Below, piece by piece: positions 2,779-26,160 of a DNA stretch of 64,000 bases. Origin of the DNA: Candidatus Spongiisociaceae bacterium (GTDB lineage: Bacteria; Actinomycetota; Acidimicrobiia; Spongiisociales; Spongiisociaceae); contig OZ241841.1 in the NCBI GenBank assembly GCA_965202665.1, positions 1,996,189 through 2,060,188 of the forward strand, in the 5' to 3' direction. The translations under genes and the position numbers were made by a program. A model generated the notes under the pieces. It was not told where the DNA came from. It saw only the letters and a list, made by a program, of their open reading frames with translations, and made no database searches. Position 1 is the first letter of the stretch; each line of letters starts with the position of its first letter.

Positions 2779-5511
2779 ATGGGAACCGAACCAGCGGAAA
2801 TAGGCGGCGGCGCCGAGGCGGGGGCGGACCCGTTGGAGGTGGTGGACGCCGAACTGCGGGCCGACATCCGGCGGTTGGGCCGGCAATTGGGCGACACGCT
2901 GGTCCGCCAGCACGGGGAGGACCTGTTGGAGTCGGTGGAGGCGGTCCGCACCCTTTCCCGGCGGTTGCGCCTCGCCGAATCGGAGGTTTCCCGGGAGCTG
3001 ACCGAACTGCTGGCCGCCGCCGATCCGGAACGGGCCAGCCTGTTGGTGGGGGCCTTTACCGTCTACTTCCATTTGGCCAATGTGACCGAGCAGGTCCATC
3101 GGGTGGAGGATATGAACGCCGAGGGGGACACCTCCGAACGGCGTTTTGCGGAAACCTTGCGCGCCCTGGTGGAGGGCGGGGTTGCGGCGGACGAAGTAGC
3201 GGCCTTGGTTAACCGCACCGCCCTCAAGCCGGTGTTCACCGCCCACCCCACTGAAGCCACACGCCGTTCGGTGTTGGAAAAGTTGGCCGAAATCGCCCAA
3301 GCCACCGCCGCCCGCAATCGCGAGCGGGCCACTCCCTCCGACCGGGCCCGCATCGATCGGCGGATCAACGAACTGTTGGAGGCCGTGTGGCAGACCGACG
3401 AGATTCGCGCCCGCCGCCCCGATCCGATCGACGAGGCCCGGTTTGTCCGTTACTACTTGGATCAGACCATCCGCGAGGCGATGCCCGCCTTGCTGGATTC
3501 CATCGCGGCCGGGATGGGGGCCATCGGAGGGGAGCTGGCCCCCGCCCACTCCCCAATTAGGTTCGGGTCATGGGTGGGCGGCGACCGGGACGGAAATCCC
3601 AATGTGACCCCGGAGATGACCGAAGCGGTGTTGCTCCAGCAACGCCGGGAATCACTGGAAATCCTCCAAGACCAGGTGCGGGAGTTGGCAAGTCAGATGA
3701 GCGTCGGTTCGCAAGTGGCGGGGGCGCCCGCCGAGATGCGCCAGTTCATCGCCCGCCACCAATCCGACTTCGCCGAAGAGTTGGCTGCCGGGGATCCGGA
3801 TCAGCCCTACCGCCTGGCCTGCTCCGTCATCTTCCAGCGGTTGCGGGAGGCCCGGGACGGGGGTCGGCGCGGCTACCGCAGTCCGGGGGAGATGCAGGCC
3901 GATTTGGCTGCGCTGGATGCGTCGTTGCGGGCCAACAAAGGTGAGTTGCTGGCCGAGGGACGGTTGGCCCGGTTGCGGCGGACGGTGGATATGATCGGGT
4001 TCCACTTGGCCGCCTTGGACATCCGCCAGCACACCGACAGCCACCACGATGCGGTGGCCGCCCTCGCCGCCCCCCTCGGCGTTGATTACGCCGCCGCCGA
4101 CCGCGCCGCCCGTATCGCTTACCTGTCCAAGGAGTTGGACAGCCCCCGCCCGCTGGCCCCGCCCGGCCGGGAAGACGTTCCGGAGGCCCTGGCCCTGTTT
4201 GAAACGTTGCGCCGATGCCTGGATGAGTTGGGCGATGAGGTGGTGGACTCCTACATTATTTCCATGACCGCCGGCCCGGACGATGTGCTGGCCGCGGTGG
4301 TTCTGGCCCGGGAGGTGGGGTTGGTGGACTTGGACCAGGGCGTTGCCCGGCTGGACTTCGTTCCCCTGTTTGAAACCATCGACGACCTGCGTTCCCTGGG
4401 CGAAACCCTTACCGCCCTGTTTGCCATTCCCGCCTACCGGAGGCTGGTGGAGGCGCGGGGCGGGGTGCAGGAGGTGATGGTCGGCTACTCCGACTCCAAC
4501 AAAGACGGCGGAATAACCACTTCGCAATGGGAGATTTACAAGGCGTTGCAGGCGATTCGGGATGTTTCCGAAGCGACCGGGGTGCGGGTGGAGGTGTTTC
4601 ACGGCCGGGGCGGTTCCATCGGCAGGGGGGGCGGTCCCACCCACGCCGCCATTCTCAGCCAGCCGGACGGGGTGTTGGACGGGGTGGTCAAATTCACCGA
4701 ACAAGGCGAGGTGATCGCCGACAAATACGGGTTGCCGGAGCTGGCCGTTCAGAACCTGGATTTGGCCCTGTCGGCTTTGGTGGAGGCCTCGGCGGGCGGC
4801 TCCGCTCCTCCGGCCGACCCGGCGGACGCCGGCCGCTGGAGCCAAATAATGGACCTGATGTCGGAGGCCGCCTATCGGGCCTACCGCGACTTCGCGCAGA
4901 CCCCCGGAATGGTGGAATATTTCGTTTCTTCCACTCCGGTGGAGGAGTTGGCCAGTCTGAACATCGGCTCCCGTCCCGCCCGCCGGGTGGAAGGCGGGGG
5001 GGATGTGGCCGACCTGCGGGCCATCCCCTGGGTGTTCGGTTGGACCCAGTCCCGCCAGATCATCCCCGGTTGGTTCGGGGTGGGGGCCGGGTTGGAGGCG
5101 GTGCGGGAAGCCGGATACGGGGAGGAGGCCTCCCGGATGTACCGGGAGTGGCCTTTTTTCCGGATGTTCGTTTCCAATGTGGAGATGACCTTGGTCAAAA
5201 CCGATCTGGGGATCGCCCGCCATTACGTAAACAACCTGACCCCCCCCGAACACCGGGGCTTGCTGGAGGTGATCTCCGCCGAGCATCGTCGCACCGTTTC
5301 CGGTTTGACGGCGGTGACCGGAGCGGAATTGTTGGCCGACCGCCCCCTCCTGCGGCGCACTTTGACCGTGCGGGACGCCTACCTGGATCCCCTGAACGTG
5401 CTTCAGGTGGAGTTGCTGTCGCGCACCCGGGCGGGCGAAGCCGACAAACACCAGCGGGCCCTGTCGCTGACCATCAACGGCATCGCCGCCGGAATGCGCA
5501 ACACCGGCTGA
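2779..5511 (+). CDS. ppc: phosphoenolpyruvate carboxylase
   Basis: The 910-aa translation has hallmark Ppc motifs ([33 protein letters not shown]-terminal [11 protein letters not shown]). Confidence 0.95.
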
Positions 5512-5531
5512 CCCGCGCCGGTCAGGTTTTA
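5508..5531 (+). terminator. hairpin terminator at the ppc stop, between convergent genes
   Basis: CTGACC-CGCGCC-GGTCAG is followed by GTTTTAAAG. It overlaps the ppc stop and the stop of the convergent gene. Confidence 0.45.
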
Positions 5532-7056
5532 AAGTAAACCGCCGTCCGCCGGGACCCTTCCATCCGCAGTCGGCCTTGGTCCCGTAACCGCCGTAGCAGG
5601 TGGGTGGCTCTGGTGGGGTCAATCAGGCACAATTCGGCTACTTCGCTCCGAGTTATGGAGCCGTTGGCCTCCACATAGTTCATCACCAGCCGTTCCCGTC
5701 TGGCCCACCTGCTGGCCCGCTGGTTTAAGCCAGTCCCAGATTCAACTGGATGGATTTGGGGCAACGGCGCTGTTGGGCCTTGGAACTGGTATTCATTTCT
5801 GGCCTCGTAAAATTCCATCAGATCCGACAGGGGAAACCGTTGGCCGTTGCGGCTCCCCTCCCTAAGTTGCCGGACCATTTGCTTGTCGGCCAATCCGGGG
5901 GCGACGCGGGCTACAACCTGGCGTGGGTCGCTACCGCCGTAATCGGGCGGCGGGCGCCCCAGCAACAGCTGTCCCTCAAAAATACGAGCGATGCCCCGTC
6001 CGGTGCGTTCCACCAGGCCGGCCCCTTTGAAAGCATCGACCAGCCGGGGATTGCGCGCCCGGGGAGGAGCGATTATTAGATTGGCGAGGGTTATCCCCTC
6101 CGGAAAGCCGCCGGGGTTGGAGACCGTTAGCGCGCCGTCGCTGATCTGCACCAGCGTCATTCCCTGATCCGCGTAGTCGCGATGGATGAGGGCGTTGGCG
6201 ATCAGTTCGCGGATGGTTACTTCGGCGAAATGAGGCAAACCGATGCGCTGGGAATCGAGATCCATTTCTTCTTCGGAGTTGCGGGCCCGCACCCGGTCGG
6301 ATATTTCCGCCATTGCCTTGAGCAACGGGATGCGCCGTATCTCATTGACCCGTACCTGCAGATGATCCAGCTCTTGAAAGCCGACTTCGTAGGCGGGCAG
6401 ATGTTTGGCGATGGCCTTTTCTTTGCCGAATAACAACAAAGCCCCTACCGTGATGTTTTCCTCCGAGTCGGTGAGGTTCAGGGCTTGCAGAAGGTCATGG
6501 TCGGAGAGACTGGTTAGGGTTTTGTCGCCGTCTGATTCCGCCATCTCCCGGAAACGGGAAAATTCGGCATCGGAAAGATCGCTCTTGGTCGCCGCAGATA
6601 AAGTTACGCTGGAAAAATCCAGCACGCCGATGCTGCCCGCTCGCCCCACCACTTATGGGGCCGCATAGGAAGACACTCCGGTTGCCCGTGTATGTCCAGC
6701 GTTCGGCGTAGGAACTTGCCGGACTTGGTGGAAACAACATCCTGTCCAACCGGGACCTTAACGGCGATCACTTCCTTGCCGTTGATGGGTACCACCTGTA
6801 CGGCGGCATCTACCGCTGGTTCGGTGCGGCTGGCGATCAACGCTTGCAGTCGCTCTGGATCTGTGTGCCTGCCGTGACGAGGTTCAGCTCCGGTGATATT
6901 TCCTTGGTCGTCAACCCCGACCAGAAGCCAGCCTCCGCGTCCGTTGGCTAAACAGACCACCGATTCCACTAGATCCTTGTCGTTTGCGCGACTTTTGAAC
7001 TCGACGTTGAGCGTCTCGCCTTCGGAAACCAGGCCCTGGAGAGTTGTAGTGTCCAT
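5522..7056 (-). pseudogene. AlbA_2 (Schlafen-like) + HATPase_c_4 + C-terminal wHTH putative regulator (RecG-like family), interrupted by a frameshift near 6640..6655
   Basis: Track ORFs 6604..7056 (AlbA_2 N-domain: ETLNVEFKS...VVCLANGRGGWLLVGVDD) and 5522..6652 (ATPase-like plus wHTH) overlap by about 50 nt in different frames. The total span is not a multiple of 3. A join of ...PMRPH|VVGRAGSIGVLDF restores a typical family member. Confidence 0.7.
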
Positions 7057-7062
7057 ATGGCT

Positions 7063-7071
7063 ATTATACCA
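7063..7071 (-). promoter_or_regulatory. extended -10 promoter giving a probably leaderless mRNA for the AlbA_2 gene
   Basis: The minus strand reads gTGgTATAATagccatATG. A perfect TATAAT with a TGn extension lies 6 nt from the ATG at 7056. No SD is present. Confidence 0.4.
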
Positions 7072-7076
7072 CTTTA

Positions 7077-7298
7077 GGCCAGGTTTTGCGTTTCGGGTTT
7101 GTAAGGGGTGTTGTTAAAGTTTGTATAGCTCTGGTTTTTTTGCGCATTTTTTGGGTTTGCGCTTATAATTTTTGTAAAATGAGGGAACTTTTTTGTTAAA
7201 GTTTGTAAAGGCCCCTGATTTTACGTCATTTTAGAGGCCAGTTTTGCGTAAAATTTTCTGGGGTGCCAAAAACAGGGGATTTTTTACGCGGATGGGTT
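7077..7298 (+). repeat. AT-rich intergenic region with about three degenerate ~80-bp direct repeats
   Basis: GGCCAG(G)TTTTGCG occurs at 7077 and 7236, with a variant GGGTTTGCGC at about 7153. TTGTTAAAGTTTGTA occurs at 7111 and 7193. The region is strikingly AT-rich compared with flanking DNA. Confidence 0.55.
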
Positions 7299-8423
7299 TT
7301 AAAATTTTACGGGGGTGATGAAAGGGAGGGGGTGGGCGACGGCGGTGCGGGGGAGGCCGTCCGCCTCGGTTTGCAGTCGGGTTTCGGGTTGGGCGCAGGG
7401 GCTTTCCACGAACACGTAGCCCAGGTTGGTCTCGAAGCGGGGGGAGTAGCAGGCCGACGTCAACACCCCCACCGTCCGTCCTCCGGCGGTTACCGGGCGG
7501 TGTTCGGGGAAGGCCGTTATAGGCGGGCCGTCGATGTAGGCGCCGGTCAGCAGGCGATGGGGCGGGCGCTCCGCCAACTCCTCCAAGGCGGCCCGTCCCA
7601 CGAAGTCCGTCCCGGGCGGGAACTCAACCAGCCTCCCGAACCCCAACTCGTAAGGGTTCACCGAATCGTTCATGTCGGTTCCGTAGGAAAGAATGCCCCC
7701 CTCCATGCGGCGAATCTGGTTGGGGGAGCCGGGTTGCGCTCCATAGGGTTCCCCCGCCGCGAACACCCGGTCCCACAGCCGCCCTCCCTCCGCTGCATCG
7801 GTCAGGAAAACCTCGTAGCCGAACTCGCCCGACCAGCCGGTGCGCGACACCAAAAGTTCCATTCCGTCCAGACGGGTCCAGGCCGCCCGGTAGTAGCCCA
7901 GGTTGGCGATGTCCTCCCCGAACAGATCGGTCGCCAAAGCTTTTGATTTGGGTCCCTGGATCTGCAGGGGCGAAACGTCGGGCTCGCGCACTTCCACTGC
8001 AAATCCCCGTTCGGCGGCTATGGCCTGCGCCCACAGCAACACATCCCGGTCGGCCAGCGACAGCCAAAACCGGTCTTCGGCCACTCGCAACAACACCGGA
8101 TCGTTCACCACGCCCCCCCGGTGATTGCACAGAAACGTGTAGCGGGCCCGGGCCACCTCCATCCGGGAAACATCCCGGGTGCACAGGTACTGGGTGAGCG
8201 CCAAGGCGTCCCGCCCGCGGATTTCCACCTGCCGCTGGCATCCCACATCCCAGACGGCCACGTCCTCCACCAAGGCCCGGTATTCCTCCAGCGTCCCGGC
8301 GAATCGGCTGGGCAGAATCATATGGTTGTAGACCGTGGCCCCTTTGGCCCCGGCGGCCAAGGCCCGCTCCAAAAAAGGGGAGGGGCGGAGACGGGGGGTG
8401 CGTTCCAGGGCCAGGTCATCCAT
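7299..8423 (-). CDS. aminomethyltransferase (GcvT) family protein, probable THF-dependent demethylase
   Basis: The 374-aa translation has GcvT-fold features (WDVGCQRQVEIRG, LQIQGPKS, SRTGWSGEFGYEVF, RRMEGGILSYGTDM). Confidence 0.8.
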   Translation of the reverse strand: MDDLALERTPRLRPSPFLERALAAGAKGATVYNHMILPSRFAGTLEEYRALVEDVAVWDVGCQRQVEIRGRDALALTQYLCTRDVSRMEVARARYTFLCNHRGGVVNDPVLLRVAEDRFWLSLADRDVLLWAQAIAAERGFAVEVREPDVSPLQIQGPKSKALATDLFGEDIANLGYYRAAWTRLDGMELLVSRTGWSGEFGYEVFLTDAAEGGRLWDRVFAAGEPYGAQPGSPNQIRRMEGGILSYGTDMNDSVNPYELGFGRLVEFPPGTDFVGRAALEELAERPPHRLLTGAYIDGPPITAFPEHRPVTAGGRTVGVLTSACYSPRFETNLGYVFVESPCAQPETRLQTEADGLPRTAVAHPLPFITPVKF

Positions 8424-9576
8424 CAGGTTTCAAATCTCCCGATTCGGAGTCGGCGGGGGCGGAGGATTTCCGGTGGCGGTAGGCCAGCCAGAAGGTAAAG
8501 GCCAAAGCCCCGGTCGCCAGCAGCGAAACCGCTGGCCGCAGGGTGTTGATGCGGTCGAACCACGCTCCTACCAGGGCCACCGTAACCCCGCCGATGGCCG
8601 CCGCGGCGGTCAGTCCCAAGGTTACGGCGCGCAACGCCAACGGCGGGGGCATTTCCCGGTCGGCGGCCAGGCCCATCAATCCCCACACCGGATAGTGGAA
8701 GGCCGCGTAGCAGAGGGCCGTCGCCGCCAAGGCCGCGTATGACCAGAAGTTGGCCGCGGCCAGCAACGCCGCCGTATAGATGGAGGCGGTTACCACTATG
8801 GCGCGCACCGGCCCGGCGCGGTCGGCCAAAGACCCGATGGGGGCGGCCGTCGCCAGAACCGTCAACCCGATCAGCCACCACAGGGCGGCGGCCGCCAACG
8901 GTCCCGCCCCCAACTCGTCGACGGCCGCCACCGTCAAATAGACCCCCATCGTGAAACCGGTTACCGCGGTGGACACCGAGGTGATGATCACCGTCCGTCC
9001 GGCGGTCATCCCCCACACCGCCCGCAACGAACCCGACCGCTCCGGCGGGGGCCCCACCGGGGGGAGGGGCCGCCTGATCATGATGGGGACCGCCGCCGTC
9101 GCTACCGCCGCGCACCCGGCGGCGAACAGGAAGGCCAGTCGCCAATTCTCCGTTCCGGTCAGGGACCAGATGAAGAAACCGTTCAGGGCGGTCCCGATGC
9201 CCGTGCCTGAAGAGGCCATGCTCATCACCAGCCCCCGCCGTTGCGCGTCCGTCACCCGCCCGGCGGACTGCAGGGTGGAGGCCCAGTTGAGGGGGGCCGA
9301 CATACCGAGGGTGACCACGCACAGGGCCAGCACCGGGGCGGAACGGACCGACGACACCAAGAGAAGCCCGGCCCCGGTCAGGGCGTAGGTTCCCATCAAC
9401 AGCCTCCGCAAACCGAAGCGGGCCGCCACCCGGGGGGTCAGGGCCGCCCCCAGGCTGTAGGCGAACATGGCGGCCGACACCGCCAAGCCCAGCGCCCCGT
9501 AGCCGGAGTCCATGGAACGCGAGATGCGGGGCAACATGGCGGGAATCAAACCCATCCCGAACCCGTGGGTGACCAT
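8416..9576 (-). CDS. MFS transporter (YbfB/YjiJ-like)
   Basis: The 386-aa protein is polytopic and hydrophobic. The in-frame upstream sequence (..LKAPAAGVLFGWGI) is also TM-like but has no ATG/GTG/TTG. The true start may therefore be non-canonical, for example CTG at 9633 overlapping the upstream TGA. Confidence 0.7.
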   Translation of the reverse strand: MVTHGFGMGLIPAMLPRISRSMDSGYGALGLAVSAAMFAYSLGAALTPRVAARFGLRRLLMGTYALTGAGLLLVSSVRSAPVLALCVVTLGMSAPLNWASTLQSAGRVTDAQRRGLVMSMASSGTGIGTALNGFFIWSLTGTENWRLAFLFAAGCAAVATAAVPIMIRRPLPPVGPPPERSGSLRAVWGMTAGRTVIITSVSTAVTGFTMGVYLTVAAVDELGAGPLAAAALWWLIGLTVLATAAPIGSLADRAGPVRAIVVTASIYTAALLAAANFWSYAALAATALCYAAFHYPVWGLMGLAADREMPPPLALRAVTLGLTAAAAIGGVTVALVGAWFDRINTLRPAVSLLATGALAFTFWLAYRHRKSSAPADSESGDLKPDG

Positions 9577-9629
9577 GATCCCCCAACCGAAGAGAACCCC
9601 GGCCGCCGGAGCTTTGAGACGGGGCCCGG

Positions 9630-10580
9630 TCAGGAGCGGGCCCTCCGCAGAACTTCGTCGATGGGGGTGGATGCCAAGTCGCCCACCTCCTGCACGTATT
9701 CATACCCGAACCGCCCTTTGATGCACAGGTGGCCGGAGGTTATCGCATGGTCCATGGGGGAAGTCACCTTGACGATCCGGTTGTCCTGCACATGCAGTTC
9801 CAGGTTGCAGCCCACCCCGCAGTAGGAGCAGACGGTCCGCGTCACGGTCTGACGTTCCTCCGCCCACATCTCCGCCTCCCGCAGTTCGTGTTCGCTGCGG
9901 AACATAAGAGCCCCGGTGGGGCAAACCCCGATGCAGTTACCGCAGAACACGCAGGCCGAGTCGGTCAGCCCGGTGTCGAATTCGGTGGAAATGCGGGCCT
10001 CGAATCCCCGCCCTGCCACCGCGATGGCGAATGTATTCTGGGCGTCTTCGCCGCAGGCCTCTACGCACTTGTAGCAGAGTATGCACCGGGAATAGTCCCT
10101 GATGTACAAGGCGTTGTCCACTTTTACCGGTTGCCGCACGGTTTCCGCCTCCTGTCCGTTGACGGGGGGATGATGGCCCGCCGTCCGCCGATCGCGGTCC
10201 TCGGCGGGGGGAGCGGGCGGCCCATAACGGCGCGGGTCGCATCCGTACTCTTCCATCCAGCGGCGGGTTTCCCCGTCTACCAGATCCAGGTCCGTGGAGG
10301 AGGCCAGAAATTCCAGCACCATACGCCGGGAAAGACGCACCCGTTCGCTGTCGGTGAAGACCGCCATCCCCTCCTCCGCCGGGCGGCTGCAGGAGGGGAT
10401 CAGGGTGCGGGAGCCCTCCACTTCCACCACGCACACCCGGCAGACGTTCACCGGGGTCAAGTTTTCCAGATAGCAGAGGGTGGGTTGACCGAGGCCCGCC
10501 GTCCGGCAGGCGTCCAGAATGGTGTCCCCGGCGGCGACGGTCACCTCCGTTCCGTCGATGGTGATGGTCGTTTCACCCAT
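9630..10580 (-). CDS. formate dehydrogenase Fe-S subunit: NuoG-like 2Fe-2S plus 4Fe-4S domains ending with the Mo-enzyme N-terminal 4Fe-4S motif (N-terminal part of a canonical FdhA/FdsA)
   Basis: ITIDGTEVTV..TLCYLE..NVCRVCVVEV is the 2Fe-2S region. CILCYKCVEAC and CVFCGNCIGVCP are ferredoxin motifs. CSYCGVGCNLELHV...GHLCIKGRFGYEYV is the MopB 4Fe-4S domain, after which the protein ends. Confidence 0.85.
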   Translation of the reverse strand: MGETTITIDGTEVTVAAGDTILDACRTAGLGQPTLCYLENLTPVNVCRVCVVEVEGSRTLIPSCSRPAEEGMAVFTDSERVRLSRRMVLEFLASSTDLDLVDGETRRWMEEYGCDPRRYGPPAPPAEDRDRRTAGHHPPVNGQEAETVRQPVKVDNALYIRDYSRCILCYKCVEACGEDAQNTFAIAVAGRGFEARISTEFDTGLTDSACVFCGNCIGVCPTGALMFRSEHELREAEMWAEERQTVTRTVCSYCGVGCNLELHVQDNRIVKVTSPMDHAITSGHLCIKGRFGYEYVQEVGDLASTPIDEVLRRARS

Positions 10581-12375
10581 CGCCCGACTCCAACAGTCCC
10601 AGTTCCGCCGCCGACCGGATGGCGGAGGAGGCGGTGTGCCCCAGTCCGCAGATGGAAGCGTCCGCCATCACCTGCGCCACATCCGAGAACAGATCCCACT
10701 CCCACTCCCCTCCGGCCAGGCGCCGTTCCAGCAGTTCTTCCTGCCGCACCGTTCCCACCCGGCAGGGGACGCACTGCCCGCACGATTCGTCCCGGAAGAA
10801 ACGGGCGATGCGGCGCGCGGCGTCTCCAAAGTCGGTTCCGGGCCCGAACGCGCACACCACCCCCGACCCCAGGGTCGCCCCCCGGGCCCGGGCGTCCTCG
10901 AAGGTGAGGGGCATGTCAAACTGGTCGGGGTCGACGAACACCCCCGCCGCCCCGCCCAGCAGAACCGCCGCCGCCCCGCCCCCGACGGTTCCGCCCGCCT
11001 TTTCCAGCAACCCGCCCAAGGTTTCCCCGAACTCCACCTCGTACAGCCCCGGCCGCCCCACATCCCCCGCTAGGCAGAACAATTTGGTTCCGGTGGAATC
11101 GGGGGTTCCCACCGCCGCGAAGGCCGCCCCTCCCCGCAATACGATTTCCGGCACGTTGAGCAAGGTTTCCACGTTGTTAATGACCGTGGGCCGCCCGAAC
11201 AGCCCCGCTACGGTGGGGAAAGGGGGCTTGTTGCGGGGCTCGCCCCGCTTGCCCTCGATGGAATTCATCAGGGCCGTTTCCTCCCCGCAGATGTAGGCCC
11301 CGCCGCCCCGCCGGATCTCAATGTCAAACGCCCGTCCCGACCCGGCGACGTCGTTTCCCAGCAGGCCGGCCCGCCGCGCCCCGGCTACGGCCTTCTCCAT
11401 TCTTTCCGTCGCCAAAGGATACTCGGCCCTTATGTACAGGTATCCGATCTCCGCCCCCACGGCCAGCCCGGCGATGGTCATGGACTCCGTCAGGGCGAAC
11501 GGGTCGCCTTCCATCAAAACCCGGTCTTTGAAGGTGCCCGGCTCGGACTCGTCGGCGTTGCAGATCAGATAACGGGGGCGGTCGGGGGAGCGGGCCACCG
11601 CCTCCCATTTGATCCCGGCCGGGAAAGCCGCCCCGCCCCGCCCCCGCAACCGGGAGGCCTTGACTTCTTCGATAACCCGCTCCGGGCCGATTTCGATCGC
11701 CCGGCGCAGGGCCGCGTAGCCCCCCGTCCGCCGATAATCATCCAGCGAAAGGGGATCCGCCGTCCCTATTCGGCGCAGCAACCGCAACCCGGCCTCACCC
11801 TGTTGGGGAAGGGGCGGCGGGGCCGGGGGAGGGGGGGCTTCCGAGTCGAGGCAGGCCGCCACATAAGCGGCGTCGGCCCCGGTCGCGGCCAAGTCGCGCC
11901 TACCCGCCCGTTGGATGAAAGCGGCCGGGGCCCGGTCGCACTGGCCCAGGCAGGGGCTGGGATGGACATCGCCCCGCCCCCGCAGCGAAGCCAGAATCTC
12001 CGTACCGCCCCTCCGCCGGCACACTACGTCGTCGCAGATGTGGGCCACCCGGCGGGGACGTTCCGTCAACGACAGCAGAGCGTAGAAACTGGCCACTCCG
12101 TAGGCTTCCGCCGGGGGGACGATCAGCCGCTCGCATATGTAATTGAGGGCCCCCCGGCTGATCCAGCCCACTTGATCGGAAACGGCGTGCAAAGCGGGGA
12201 GCAACAGATGTCGTCGTTCGATCATGCGCCGGTATCCACCCGGGGCGGTGCGCATCATCGGCGAGGGGCCGGCCTCCCCGTTTTCGGCCGGGTTCGCCCC
12301 CTCCTCCGTTGCGGGCGCGCCCAAGAGCCGGTCGACCGCCTCCCGCTCCTCGGCGGTGGGGGCGGCGGACATCAA
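10573..12375 (-). CDS. NAD(H)-binding formate dehydrogenase subunit, NuoE-like/NuoF-like fusion
   Basis: The N-terminal half resembles NuoE (ASFYALLSL...HICDDVVC...CLGQCDRAPA). The C-terminal half resembles NuoF (GRGGAAFPAGIKW, CNADESEPGTFKDR, ESCGQCVPCR). Confidence 0.9.
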   Translation of the reverse strand: MMSAAPTAEEREAVDRLLGAPATEEGANPAENGEAGPSPMMRTAPGGYRRMIERRHLLLPALHAVSDQVGWISRGALNYICERLIVPPAEAYGVASFYALLSLTERPRRVAHICDDVVCRRRGGTEILASLRGRGDVHPSPCLGQCDRAPAAFIQRAGRRDLAATGADAAYVAACLDSEAPPPPAPPPLPQQGEAGLRLLRRIGTADPLSLDDYRRTGGYAALRRAIEIGPERVIEEVKASRLRGRGGAAFPAGIKWEAVARSPDRPRYLICNADESEPGTFKDRVLMEGDPFALTESMTIAGLAVGAEIGYLYIRAEYPLATERMEKAVAGARRAGLLGNDVAGSGRAFDIEIRRGGGAYICGEETALMNSIEGKRGEPRNKPPFPTVAGLFGRPTVINNVETLLNVPEIVLRGGAAFAAVGTPDSTGTKLFCLAGDVGRPGLYEVEFGETLGGLLEKAGGTVGGGAAAVLLGGAAGVFVDPDQFDMPLTFEDARARGATLGSGVVCAFGPGTDFGDAARRIARFFRDESCGQCVPCRVGTVRQEELLERRLAGGEWEWDLFSDVAQVMADASICGLGHTASSAIRSAAELGLLESGDG

Positions 12376-23691: not shown

Positions 23692-24531
23692 ATGGTTGAG
23701 ATCATCCCCCACATCGACGATATCGGGGTCACGTTGGGGTCGGTGCGGGCCATGGAGGAGCTGGCCGGCCGGGGGTTTGTCACTTCCGGTTCGGTTATGG
23801 CCCCCTGTCCCTGGTTGGCGGAGGCGGCCGCCCTGTCCGCCCGCCGCCCGGAGCTGGATCTGGGTCTGCATCTCACGCTCACCTCCGAGTCGGCGCGTAT
23901 GCGCTGGCGGCCCCTTTCCACCCGCTCCCCCGCCTCCGGGTTGATCGACGGGGACGGGTTCATGTGGCCCACGGTTCCGCAGTTGCGGGCCAACGCCCAT
24001 CCGGGGGCGGTGGAGGAGGAACTGGAAGCCCAGATTGAGGCGGCCCGCCGGGCGGGGATGGAGCCCACCCATCTGGATCATCATATGGGAGCGGCTTTCG
24101 CTCCCGAGTTCGCCGCTCTGACCGTGCGCATCGCCCGTCGCCGCCGGTTGCCGGTTTTGATACCGGCCGACCCGGCCGCCTACGCGGGGGTTCTGGAGTG
24201 GGGGGAGGCCGATATGCGGGTTCTGGAGGAGGTGCGGGACCGGGAGCAAGCCGCCGGCGCGGTGTTGGCGGACCGGTTTTTGATGGGTCTGGCCTTCCAA
24301 GACGAGGAGCCCGACGCGGTTTATCGGCGTTTTTTGGCTGAAGCGGAGGGTTTGACTTTTCTGTCGTTGCACTGCGACTCCCCCGGCGAGGTTACGGCCG
24401 TCCACCCCAACGACGCCGGCTGGCGCATCGCCGAATACGAGTGGGTCAAAGCGGGGGCCGCCCCTCTGCCCGACGGAGTCCGCCTGACGGACTTCCGGTC
24501 GCTGTCCGCCCGCTGGCGTTGGCCTGCCTAA
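23692..24531 (+). CDS. ChbG/HpnK (YdjC) family carbohydrate deacetylase
   Basis: The ATG is at 23692. MVEIIPHIDDIGVT...LGLHLTLTSE...THLDHHMG matches the YdjC family. Only the last 279 codons of track ORF 22567..24531 are coding. Confidence 0.8.
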   Translation: MVEIIPHIDDIGVTLGSVRAMEELAGRGFVTSGSVMAPCPWLAEAAALSARRPELDLGLHLTLTSESARMRWRPLSTRSPASGLIDGDGFMWPTVPQLRANAHPGAVEEELEAQIEAARRAGMEPTHLDHHMGAAFAPEFAALTVRIARRRRLPVLIPADPAAYAGVLEWGEADMRVLEEVRDREQAAGAVLADRFLMGLAFQDEEPDAVYRRFLAEAEGLTFLSLHCDSPGEVTAVHPNDAGWRIAEYEWVKAGAAPLPDGVRLTDFRSLSARWRWPA

Positions 24532-24570
24532 AGGTTCCGAGAACAATGCAAACCCGCCCGAAATTTCGGA

Positions 24571-24785
24571 GTTTGACAGAGTTTATGCGTTTCGCATAAG
24601 GTTGATAAGGTGGGGTTAGGTTTGTATAACTCTCCATCAGCGAGGAAGTTTGACAGAGTTTATGCGTTTCGCATAAGGTTGATAAGGTGGGGTTAGGTTT
24701 GTATAACTCTCCATCAGCGAGGAAGTTTGACAGAGTTTATGCGTTTCGCATAAGGTTGATAAAGTATAGTAAGGTCTGAATAACT
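24571..24785 (+). repeat. 77-bp tandem direct repeat, 2 identical copies plus a third diverging after ~38 nt
   Basis: Copies start at 24571, 24648 and 24725. Each contains the palindrome TTATGCG-TTT-CGCATAA (24583, 24660, 24737). Each also has the promoter-like pairs TTGACA-N18-TAAGGT and TTGATA-N17-TATAAC. Confidence 0.9.
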
Positions 24786-25970
24786 ATGGACGTAAACGAA
24801 AATCCGTATCGCCCCGGAGCCGGTACCAGGCCTCCGGTGCTGAGAGGACGCGATGATCTATTCGCCCGCTTCGAGGGCATAGTAGAACATGCACTCCGCG
24901 GGCGGCCCGGTAAAAGCTTGGTGTTGCTGGGCTTGCGCGGCGTCGGCAAGACCGTGTTGTTGAACCAGTTCGTCAGTCTCGCCGAGCAGAAGGGTTACAG
25001 CACGGGACATATGGAGGCCGATGAATCCCAGGACCTGCGTTTGTTGATGGCCATGCGCCTGCGTCGGATTCTGCTGGCCTTGCAAAGACGACGCCCGTCG
25101 CAAAAAATTATGCGGGCGTTGCGGATACTGAAAGCCTTCAGCTACCAGTTGCCGGATGGTTCCCTTGTCACTTTGGATGTGGAGGCGTTGCGGGGTTACG
25201 CCGATTCCGGCGTTATCGGCGATGACCTAACGGATTTGCTGGTCGCCGTAGGGGAGGCGGCCGCAGGCCAGGAGCGAGGCGTGCTGTTGGCGGTAGATGA
25301 AATTCAGTATTTGGCGAAAGAGGAGTTGGGAGGGTTGATTGCCGCTATTCACCGTACCACCCAACTGGATCTTCCGGTGGTGCTGGTGGGAGCCGGCCTG
25401 CCCCAGTTGCCCAAATTGGCGGGTGAGGCTAAATCTTACTCGGAACGGTTGTTTGAATTTCCCTTTGTCAACTCTTTGTCGGAGGAAGACGCCGCGGCCG
25501 CCATCGCCCTGCCGGCGGCGCCGTTGGGAGTGGAGTTTGCGGACGCCGCCTTGGAAGCCATCTTCGCCAACTCAAAAGGCTATCCGTATTTTCTGCAGGG
25601 TTGGGGTTATTACGTATGGAATGAGGCCGGCGTCTCTCCGGTTGGTCCGGAGGCGGTGCGGGCCGCGGCCGAGTTGGTCGTCAAGCATCTGGATCGCGAT
25701 TTCTATGCGATGCGCTTTGATCGCTTGACTCTCAAAGAAAAAACATATTTACGGACTATGGCCGAATTCAAATCCAGCAAGATACGCTCCGGGGATATCG
25801 CCGCCCGCCTCGGGGTTCCGGTGGAGAACGCCGCTCCCCGGCGCAGCGCCTTGATCCGGAAGGGCATGATTTACAGTCCCGGGTACGGCGAGACGGCTTT
25901 CACCGTCCCCATGTTTGACGATTTTTTGCGGCGGCAGATGCCGGATTTTCAGGCGGCGACGGGCGATTGA
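24786..25970 (+). CDS. orphan AAA-type ATPase with C-terminal winged-helix domain (AAA_16/Arch_ATPase-like, Orc1/Cdc6-like architecture)
   Basis: NPYRPGAGTRPPVLRGRD...LLGLRGVGKTVLL is the Walker A region and LLAVDEIQYL is Walker B. The C-terminal LTLKEKTYLRTMAEF..SGDIAARLGV...RSALIRKGMIYSP is wHTH-like. A/T-ending codons are more frequent than in neighbouring genes. Confidence 0.75.
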   Translation: MDVNENPYRPGAGTRPPVLRGRDDLFARFEGIVEHALRGRPGKSLVLLGLRGVGKTVLLNQFVSLAEQKGYSTGHMEADESQDLRLLMAMRLRRILLALQRRRPSQKIMRALRILKAFSYQLPDGSLVTLDVEALRGYADSGVIGDDLTDLLVAVGEAAAGQERGVLLAVDEIQYLAKEELGGLIAAIHRTTQLDLPVVLVGAGLPQLPKLAGEAKSYSERLFEFPFVNSLSEEDAAAAIALPAAPLGVEFADAALEAIFANSKGYPYFLQGWGYYVWNEAGVSPVGPEAVRAAAELVVKHLDRDFYAMRFDRLTLKEKTYLRTMAEFKSSKIRSGDIAARLGVPVENAAPRRSALIRKGMIYSPGYGETAFTVPMFDDFLRRQMPDFQAATGD

Positions 25971-25983
25971 CGGCTGGTTGGAT

Positions 25984-26012
25984 TTGGCGGCCGGCCGGGT
26001 ATGGCGTATAAT
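25984..26012 (+). promoter_or_regulatory. putative rplJL promoter
   Basis: TTGGCG, a 17-nt spacer, then TATAAT (26007..26012). A ~145-nt GC-rich structured leader follows, possibly an L10-leader-type autoregulatory RNA (not verified). Confidence 0.45.
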
Positions 26013-26160
26013 GCTTCCCTTGCGTCCGCTTGCGGGCGGGCGCGCGACCGTAGACAGCCGGCGCCGTAAAGCGTAAGCGGCCCGTTCGGGTCCGCCTGCC
26101 GAGGTCCTTCCCGGTCTCCGGGCGGCTGTCGCGGGTGGAGCAGAGCCAAGGAGAGACCAA

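Follow-up and report, generated by a model that had tools for sequence, protein, structure and literature searches.

The 64-kb window analysed here, the whole stretch of DNA under study from a Candidatus Spongiisociaceae bacterium, is a chromosomal segment of ~64% guanine-cytosine (GC) content on which ppc, an ABC transporter and rplJ-rplL-rpoB are found among other housekeeping genes. A 2.76-Mb contig in ENA and NCBI (L001/L011) matches the window at 99% identity, and the annotations of its relatives place these in the Acidimicrobiia (Iamia, Microthrixaceae and 'Ca. Poriferisodalis'). Only two places in the 64 kb fall far below 45% GC. One, at 7037-7330, holds the spacer between a GcvT-fold aminomethyltransferase gene and a regulator gene with AlbA_2, HATPase_c_4 and winged helix-turn-helix (wHTH) domains (region A, 7057-7298). 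The other, at 24528-24829, holds a repeat array directly upstream of a solitary AAA+/wHTH ATPase gene (array B, 24570-24785), ~17.5 kb away from region A. These two regions share a short module, which is genuinely homologous between them, and the resemblance resides in one local patch of one class of region A alleles rather than being a property of both arrays. The first-pass annotation of the window, made by eye from its letters, had correctly identified the flanking genes and the orientation of the module, which points away from the AlbA_2 gene and into the 3' end of the GcvT-like gene.

The shared module is a match, on the same strand, between window positions 7080-7132 and positions 8-64 of the 77-bp unit of array B (24570-24646), with 44 of 60 alignment columns identical. 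The Smith-Waterman score of 7057-7298 against this unit is 35, as compared with 17.6 +/- 2.5 for dinucleotide shuffles, none of which reached 35 in 1000 attempts; on the opposite strand the alignment has z = 0. Since shuffles can flatter motif-rich DNA, we added two natural nulls, the orthologous A spacers of other lineages (see below) and a set of 127 genuine AT-rich stretches of 242 bp taken from loci with no relation to A or B; the latter set gave a mean of 15.7, a standard deviation of 2.1 and a maximum of 22. Furthermore, GTTTGTATARCTCT with two mismatches or fewer is found in the 64 kb only at A and B, against an expectation of 0.08. Taken together, the shuffles, the natural nulls and the rarity of this word argue that the shared module is real homology, and they bear out the first-pass claims that the first unit of region A aligns with the 24.6-kb repeat and that the AT-rich blocks common to both exceed chance. 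An nhmmer search of the window with the module returned E = 6.9e-11, using a model that includes A itself. The module hidden Markov model (HMM) found no copies besides A and B in the window, and none elsewhere in 170 kb of related loci.

Two blocks anchor the match. The 5' block, TGCGTTTCG, coincides in part with the -35 zone that the AlbA_2 promoter has on the other strand; at its position the class-2 alleles, by which we mean those of the L012/L014 type as opposed to the class-1 allele of the window and L011, carry TGCGTTTTG. As TGCGTTTTG is nearly the same as TGCGTTTCG, most of the 5' block was already present in region A. At the 3' block the class-2 alleles read GTTTTGCAAAGCCCC or GTTTGCAAAGTCCC. 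Region A aligns best with the upstream-type unit of the same genome (score 35), the proximal unit reaching 23 and the upstream unit of L006 reaching 26, so that the copies of A and B within a genome are more alike than copies between species. The words are spaced by 14 and 8 nt in the A module, versus 9 and 10 nt in B. The coordinates of all features are collected in Table 1.

Table 1. Coordinates of the features discussed at region A and array B (positions in the window).
Feature	Position	Strand	Remarks
Shared module	7080..7132	+	~53-nt diverged copy of the upstream-type 77-bp B unit
5' block TGCGTTTCG	7087..7095	+	equals left arm and spacer of the B palindrome TTATGCG-TTT-CGCATAA
3' block GTTTGTATAGCTCT	7119..7132	+	13/14 bases match GTTTGTATAACTCT in B
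Region A	7057..7298	none	38% GC spacer from the GcvT/DmdA-like stop to the AlbA_2 start; divergence hot spot
AGGCCAG(G)TTT, first copy	7076-7086		
AGGCCAG(G)TTT, second copy	7235..7245	+	159 nt from first copy; repeat family D8
18-nt direct repeat, copy 1	7111..7128	+	family D3; contains TAAAGT (7115-7120)
18-nt direct repeat, copy 2	7193..7210	+	82 nt downstream of copy 1; family D3, 94%
Predicted extended -10 box TGGTATAAT of AlbA_2	7063..7071	-	6 nt (AGCCAT) before ATG 7056-7054
AlbA_2/HATPase_c_4/wHTH gene	5522..7056	-	Schlafen/AlbA_2-type; 1-nt deletion at ~6654/6655
GcvT-fold aminomethyltransferase gene	7299..8423	-	best match DmdA-like, below curated cut-off; stop borders region A
Array B	24570..24785	+	two identical 77-bp upstream units (24570-24646, 24647-24723) and a proximal unit (24724-24785)
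Palindrome TTATGCG-TTT-CGCATAA	24583..24599	+	in each B unit; inverted word faces first direct word
Third direct word TAAGGT, TANNNT -10 box	24770..24775	+	10 nt before the AAA+ ATG
Solitary AAA_16 ATPase gene, C-terminal helical/winged-helix region	24786..25970	+	immediately upstream of rplJ-rplL-rpoBC

A comparison across lineages shows how narrow this homology is. While the module HMM detects the B arrays of all close relatives, it detects region A only in the window and L011, and not in L012, L013, L014, L104 or L106. When aligned with the window's array B, the A spacers of L012 and L014 give z = 0.2 and -0.9, and the A spacers of L012, L014, L104 and L106 against all B arrays give z between -1.4 and +1.8, the sole exception being L012 against the array of L007 (z 4.2). 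Outside 7080-7132, region A of the window shares no more 6- and 7-mers with B than shuffles do (z ~0.3), and the same-species pair L104/L009 has neither A-B similarity nor shared k-mers. Within the patch, a three-way alignment shows that the window departs from the class-2 alleles mostly towards the B state (14 sites), with TTTCG, TAAGG, GTTA and GTATAGCTCT as B-state stretches, and that the remaining positions show the A state. Nor does the patch have the architecture of the operator family to which array B belongs: region A lacks the combination of direct words spaced by 9 and 10 nt, a TANNNT hexamer 8-10 nt before an ATGGAY start, and inverted words, and no gene starts after the A module. 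It thus reads as a diverged copy of a B unit and not as a functional-looking member of the family.

As for the rest of region A, the first-pass annotation had proposed about three ~80-bp units at 7077..7298. The short repeats on which this proposal was built are indeed present, namely AGGCCAG(G)TTT (11 nt, 91% between copies) and TTGTTAAAGTTTGTA[T/A]AG (18 nt, 94%), the second copy of the latter bringing a further TAAAGT at 7197-7202. The regular array is not supported, however. Tandem Repeats Finder (TRF) reports no tandem repeat in 7057-7298, even with a threshold score of 30. Ungapped autocorrelation is 0.38 at a shift of 82, no more than the mean of the maxima of shuffled sequences, and it peaks at a shift of 51 (p ~0.03). 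As the 5' block recurs at 159 nt and the 3' block at 82, the repeats are out of register, and what the window contains is a patchwork of short repeats. A single period by TRF or autocorrelation is seen in array B and in the orthologous spacer of L106, a clean tandem array of 3 x 74 bp, and not in region A of the window; the spacers of L012 and L014 can be read as 3-4 degenerate units. Region A is therefore a decayed tandem array that varies from lineage to lineage and sits upstream of a conserved putative core promoter.

That core promoter would belong to the AlbA_2 gene. Its layout of TGGTATAAT, 6 nt and ATG is invariant in L011, L012 and L014, with comparable layouts in L104 (TATACT, 7 nt, ATG) and L106 (gtgTATAAT, 6 nt, ATG), and the predicted promoter implies a leaderless mRNA. 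A two-hexamer consensus promoter scan of region A finds nothing on either strand and no -35 match for the TGGTATAAT promoter; in sigma-70 type promoters an extended -10 TGn can stand in for the -35 box. Five lineages, with AlbA_2 identities as low as 57%, have the gene order MFS-GcvT-[A]-AlbA_2-ppc in common, which means that AlbA_2 is not a recent island, and since the AAA gene is likewise syntenic across several related lineages, the idea that both genes are recent low-GC islands has to be abandoned. The spacer is always long (206-317 bp across lineages) and has 35-38% GC in the three alleles measured; the spacers of L104 and L106 are AT-rich by eye. It turns over rapidly: positions 7100-7300 are ~60% identical to L012 (98% average nucleotide identity, ANI) and L014 (95% ANI), as against 96-100% identity in the flanks. 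TTTGCG, which is ~7-fold enriched, in a strand-specific manner, in the A spacers of all lineages, is the one word with any hint of conservation. RNA folding of region A gave weak z-scores on both strands (only -2.1 and -1.8) and no terminator-like hairpin, and small open reading frames (ORFs) in it were rejected as genes for being non-conserved.

The AlbA_2 gene itself, the third domain of which is HTH_24, is intact in L012/L013 (511 aa) and in L014. The L011 copy (9384-10915) has two frameshifts that differ from the deletion in the window; these frameshifts could reflect relaxed selection in class-1 strains or, equally, errors of long-read assembly. The N-terminal AlbA_2 domain is mosaic between strains, with 83% identity versus 96% for the rest or C-terminal part of the protein, which is consistent with a mosaic, fast-evolving and possibly defence-related gene. 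PADLOC matches of the locus to Schlafen-type domains associated with prokaryotic Argonaute (pAgo) are weak.

In array B, TRF describes 24570-24762 as 2.5 copies of 77 bp with 100% identity. The AAA gene also lies directly upstream of rplJ in relatives with 77-89% identical proteins, and all of these have tandem repeats upstream of it: two units in L006, about five copies of 48 bp in L007, and contigs that break inside the repeats in L008-L010. The 77-bp unit is present 2.5 times in the window and in long-read L001 and 1.5 times in short-read L002/L003 (9772-10015; 2097-2340), a difference that is either a real polymorphism or a collapse in short-read assembly; five contigs (L004/L005/L008-L010) end inside repeats. 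In L007, an ISL3-family transposase gene (4293-5681) lies immediately upstream of the 48-bp copies (5700-5925), and small unannotated ORFs replace the ABC-transporter/YdjC synteny upstream. On the other side of the AAA gene, the 190-nt spacer before rplJ-rplL (25971-26160) has no match to the L10 leader or any other Rfam family at the gathering threshold.

To place array B in a wider context, we compared the upstream elements of 80 metagenomic homologues of the ATPase with 43-61% identity. All 17 loci of the nearest group have TAAG three times, at spacings of exactly 9 and 10 nt and followed by the start codon, and in 16 of the 16 distinct nearest-group loci aligned the last word, TAAGNT, is ~8 nt before the ATG. 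The direct words immediately precede a conserved ATGGAY start, and one or two inverted words upstream make the element, ~65 nt in length, pseudo-palindromic. Inverted pairs are seen, for instance, as CTTACCG...CGGTAAG in L032, L036 and L037 and as three CTTATC facing three GATAAG in L098, and L053 has a long palindrome. The words follow the protein subgroup (TAAG; TATAAC/GATATAC/GTAAAC; GTTAAC/GTTAAA; CTAACT), and the three-word layout recurs on Legionella and Sphingobium plasmids. A TANNNT hexamer lies 5-10 nt before the start in 48 of 73 family loci and a Shine-Dalgarno-like 4-mer in 3 of 73, which, in the light of known actinobacterial promoters, points to mRNAs that are probably leaderless or nearly so. 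A profile built from 16 homologous loci, without the window sequence, ranks the three B units as its top three matches in the window (E 0.04-0.09) and has no match at region A. The upstream 77-bp units read TTAGGT, having lost TANNNT, and appear to be a diverged duplicate of the proximal promoter. Array B as a whole may thus be described as the predicted promoter/operator that the AAA+ gene has throughout its family and that has undergone tandem amplification in this clade. Upstream tandem arrays were also considered as a general feature of the AAA family, and this was rejected: TRF finds few of them in distant homologues, and the amplification is confined to the clade.

The protein family is large, with more than 8000 homologues of the AAA_16/winged-helix ATPase scored, ~60% identity being reached across phyla, on chromosomes and plasmids of many phyla. 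In its AlphaFold model (predicted local distance difference test score, pLDDT, 75), the best structural matches are archaeal SSO1545 and PABY2304, followed by DNA-bound Orc1/Cdc6; a sequence search of the PDB gave no match, and NCBIfam and PADLOC gave only sub-threshold hints of Orc1/Cdc6, Hda and mad8. No conserved neighbour or partner gene was found among the homologous loci, no relatives of the ATPase or of the AlbA_2 protein were found in viral contigs, and we found nothing relevant in the literature on the family or its upstream element.

By analogy with ATPase-wHTH autorepressors such as F-plasmid ParA, we infer that the product of the AAA+ gene binds array B, which would make the array an auto-operator. 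Type Ia ParA of the F plasmid is a winged-HTH NTPase that binds its own par promoter cooperatively through hexamer-type words, inverted and overlapping, and this promoter organisation is conserved across related and distant systems (PMC8465637). Like it, array B has inverted and direct words (9 and 10 nt apart) that cover the -35 to -10 stretch of its own promoter. Unlike ParA, the ATPase is predicted to be an AAA+ protein of the Orc1/Cdc6/archaeal ATPase fold and not of the ParA Walker type, it is solitary, with neither a parB nor a centromere partner, and its binding to the words would be putative; region A, for its part, belongs to a different gene and has only one diverged unit.

Initiator-type repeat arrays offer another comparison. 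Examples are the iterons of plasmids together with Rep, the DnaA boxes of the dnaA promoter and archaeal origin recognition box (ORB) elements by orc1/cdc6 (structures 2v1u and 2qby). Array B resembles them in that an AAA+/wHTH gene stands beside AT-rich repeated words, direct and inverted, in that the words vary by protein lineage and in that the tandem copy number varies. It differs from them in showing no sign of origin function: the window has no skew switch, and B has no DnaA box or defined unwinding element, no match of a DnaA-box search having been followed up. Furthermore, the ~65-bp element overlaps the core promoter, and the 77-bp unit would be a duplicated promoter, not an iteron of 17-22 bp.

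How, then, did a piece of this operator come to resemble part of the AlbA_2 spacer? The explanation that we favour, with confidence evenly balanced between belief and doubt, is that the patch in region A is an old ectopic or gene-conversion copy of a B unit, region A being the control region of AlbA_2 and array B the promoter/operator of the AAA+ gene. In the AT-rich A spacer, tandem repeats would expand, decay and be exchanged between lineages very fast; the whole class-1 spacer would be old and divergent, and recombination probably carried it from strain to strain. The promoter-proximal ~53 bp now found in the window and L011 would have been acquired at an earlier point of the class-1 history as an ectopic copy of a B unit, via gene conversion or templated repair. 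A transfer from B to A is the favoured direction because the B architecture is family-wide. Promoter variable-number tandem repeat (VNTR) polymorphism and ectopic gene conversion between dispersed repeats are both found in bacteria. The arrays are like VNTRs in that their unit number varies (2.5 versus 1.5 in B, about five 48-bp copies in L007, 3 x 74 bp in the A spacer of L106), and unlike simple-sequence contingency repeats in that their units are long (48-77 bp); unlike a fresh conversion, the A-B patch is old and diverged, and a conversion is suggested by its pattern only.

The consequences for AlbA_2 could go either way. The patch occupies positions -24 to -76 relative to the predicted AlbA_2 start, its orientation to AlbA_2 being inverted when compared with B, and the B regulator, if it recognised the patch, would sit on the AlbA_2 promoter. 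The patch could be protein-binding DNA that brings AlbA_2 under the control of the B regulator or, just as well, a neutral scar in a strain with a decaying AlbA_2 gene. We also considered a bolder version, in which the Orc1/Cdc6-like ATPase is a sequence-specific autoregulator with a co-evolving, amplifiable operator of several words, a copy of which was grafted onto the promoter of the polymorphic, defence-like AlbA_2 gene, rewiring or silencing it, with independent frameshifts following in two class-1 genomes. If true, this would show in nature how a regulon can grow when an operator is transplanted from one AT-rich repeat array to another, and we regard it as rather unlikely.

Several observations weigh against the favoured explanation. 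The direction of transfer is not settled, and the GTTA and GGTG states of the window's array B could come from A. The spacing of 14 and 8 nt in the patch, together with the failure of the family profile to match it, makes binding by the B regulator doubtful, so that recognition of the patch would be uncertain at best. The patch is 73% identical to B, with indels, and no clean conversion tract can be drawn; the three-way site count depends on an alignment optimised against B, and, given the near-identity of class-2 TGCGTTTTG to TGCGTTTCG, some of the similarity was there beforehand. The true donor could be a third copy in another part of the genome, and the AlbA_2 frameshifts may be errors of long-read assembly rather than signs of decay.

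Among the alternatives to an ectopic copy, the first-pass annotation had itself suggested binding sites for a common regulator. In the form considered here, both whole arrays would be multi-site operators of one protein, such as the AAA+/wHTH ATPase, which would co-regulate the two wHTH genes. The position of the module over the -35 zone of AlbA_2 is in keeping with this, as are the resemblance of the strand-specific, ~7-fold enriched TTTGCG of the A spacers to the left word of B (TTATGCG; GTTTGCG in L007 and L009) and the weak similarity (z 4.2) of the L012 spacer to the array of L007. We nonetheless consider it quite unlikely, because A and B share no vocabulary outside the module, either in the window or in the L104/L009 pair, natural-control alignments have z between -1.4 and +0.8, the family profile misses region A, the orthologous spacers are unlike B, and the word spacing is different. 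Second copies of the element near other genes are also missing from 70+ homologous loci, bar one strong match in L075 that is probably its own adjacent tandem repeat. A more modest role, as non-specific architectural DNA, strikes us as unlikely: the AT-rich and perhaps curved region A would act as an UP-like element or Lsr2-type target, its repeats being by-products of slippage and the patch functionless. It would account for a GC content held at 35-38% in a ~64% GC genome despite fast turnover, and for the 10.5-bp periodicity of TTT/AAA, which three alleles with no more than ~60% identity have in common (window 7057-7298, L012 5728-6000 and L014 5852-6168; z 3.4-6.6 relative to dinucleotide shuffles). 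When tracts and spacers are permuted and the maximum is taken over periods, however, the phasing is not significant (p 0.06-0.7), and the specific 53-bp homology is left unexplained; this role is at the same time compatible with the patch being a copy of a B unit. Xenogeneic silencers of the H-NS/Lsr2 type target AT-rich curved upstream DNA, and region A is like their targets in its strong AT excess within a GC-rich genome and its position upstream of a polymorphic, possibly defence-related gene. It is unlike them in that the AlbA_2 and AAA genes are syntenic residents and not recent islands, and its specific homology is not accounted for.

Two further readings develop suggestions of the first-pass annotation. 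In the one, the module would be a divergent promoter firing rightward (+ strand) from ~7127; the outcome would be either interference with the AlbA_2 promoter or an antisense RNA covering the 3' end of the GcvT-like gene. The TANNNT hexamer TAAAGT at 7115-7120 is exactly where the proximal B unit has its -10 box TAAGGT, and a second follows in the other repeat copy. Against this stand the empty consensus scan of both strands, with no recognisable -35 box, the want of a conserved small ORF, Rfam family or stable structure downstream, and the loss of TANNNT from the very B units that are most like A; such a promoter is, in our view, improbable. In the other, the arrays would be decayed copies of one mobile or iteron element. 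Of the three first-pass options this one comes nearest to the findings. Part of it has held up, in that A contains what appears to be a diverged copy of a B unit and is itself a decayed array, and part of it has not, in that there is no sign of mobility. Tandem AT-rich repeats beside an initiator-like AAA+/wHTH gene do recall iteron or ORB origins, and the ISL3 transposase gene upstream of the L007 array would fit a mobile element. A dispersed mobile-element remnant, miniature inverted-repeat transposable element (MITE) or iteron replicon origin is very improbable all the same: the window and the 170 kb of related loci hold no other copies, terminal inverted repeats flanking the module were not found, both loci are syntenic in several lineages, and the cumulative GC skew rises monotonically across the window with no inflection. 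Moreover, the words overlap the -10 box of the AAA gene itself, viral relatives were not found, and region A has no initiator-like gene reading from it. Chance resemblance of the window's only two AT-rich stretches, finally, is barely credible. Both are T-rich with GTTTG-type words, and the 9-mer alone is non-significant, but the similarity is strand-specific, its blocks are collinear, and a score of 35, never reached in 1000 shuffles and well above the control maximum of 22, effectively refutes it.

Some results on search scope and on the remainder of the window complete the picture. Searches for proteins identical to GcvT, to ppc and to the N-terminal AlbA_2 ORF of 150 aa returned no match, and the orthologous regions were found via homologues. 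The pattern TGCGTTTCGN{18,32}GTTTGTATANCT had nine matches, all in unrelated taxa, in a genome-contig collection that excludes the source genome; none is module-like beyond the pattern itself, and by our estimate ~16 were expected by chance. Rfam has no match in the whole window at the gathering threshold and none at E <= 1 in 6900-7500, and no tRNAs were found in the window. A direct repeat of at least 150 nt with 86% identity occurs at 1154-1303 and 1821-1970 (667 nt spacing), within a gap of ~1 kb that contains no genes and separates an OpuAC gene from an NYN-domain gene; the orthologous gap in L014 contains an rve-family integrase gene.

Overall, a similarity between AT-rich spacers that was spotted by hand has turned out to be genuine homology, yet homology of a strain-specific patch as opposed to a regulatory code common to both spacers. 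The turnover of AT-rich promoter arrays in this GC-rich genome is fast, with ~40% divergence at 98% ANI, and region A can be seen as an ordinary, if unusually fast-evolving, promoter-upstream array with an unusual graft. The operator of the AAA+/wHTH ATPase is the more notable of the two. This conserved, widespread protein, with a stereotyped, apparently co-evolving operator and a probable leaderless start, emerged as a by-product of our analysis and is probably its more valuable part, since the words of the operator, their spacing and their symmetry provide a handle on the DNA-binding specificity of the protein.

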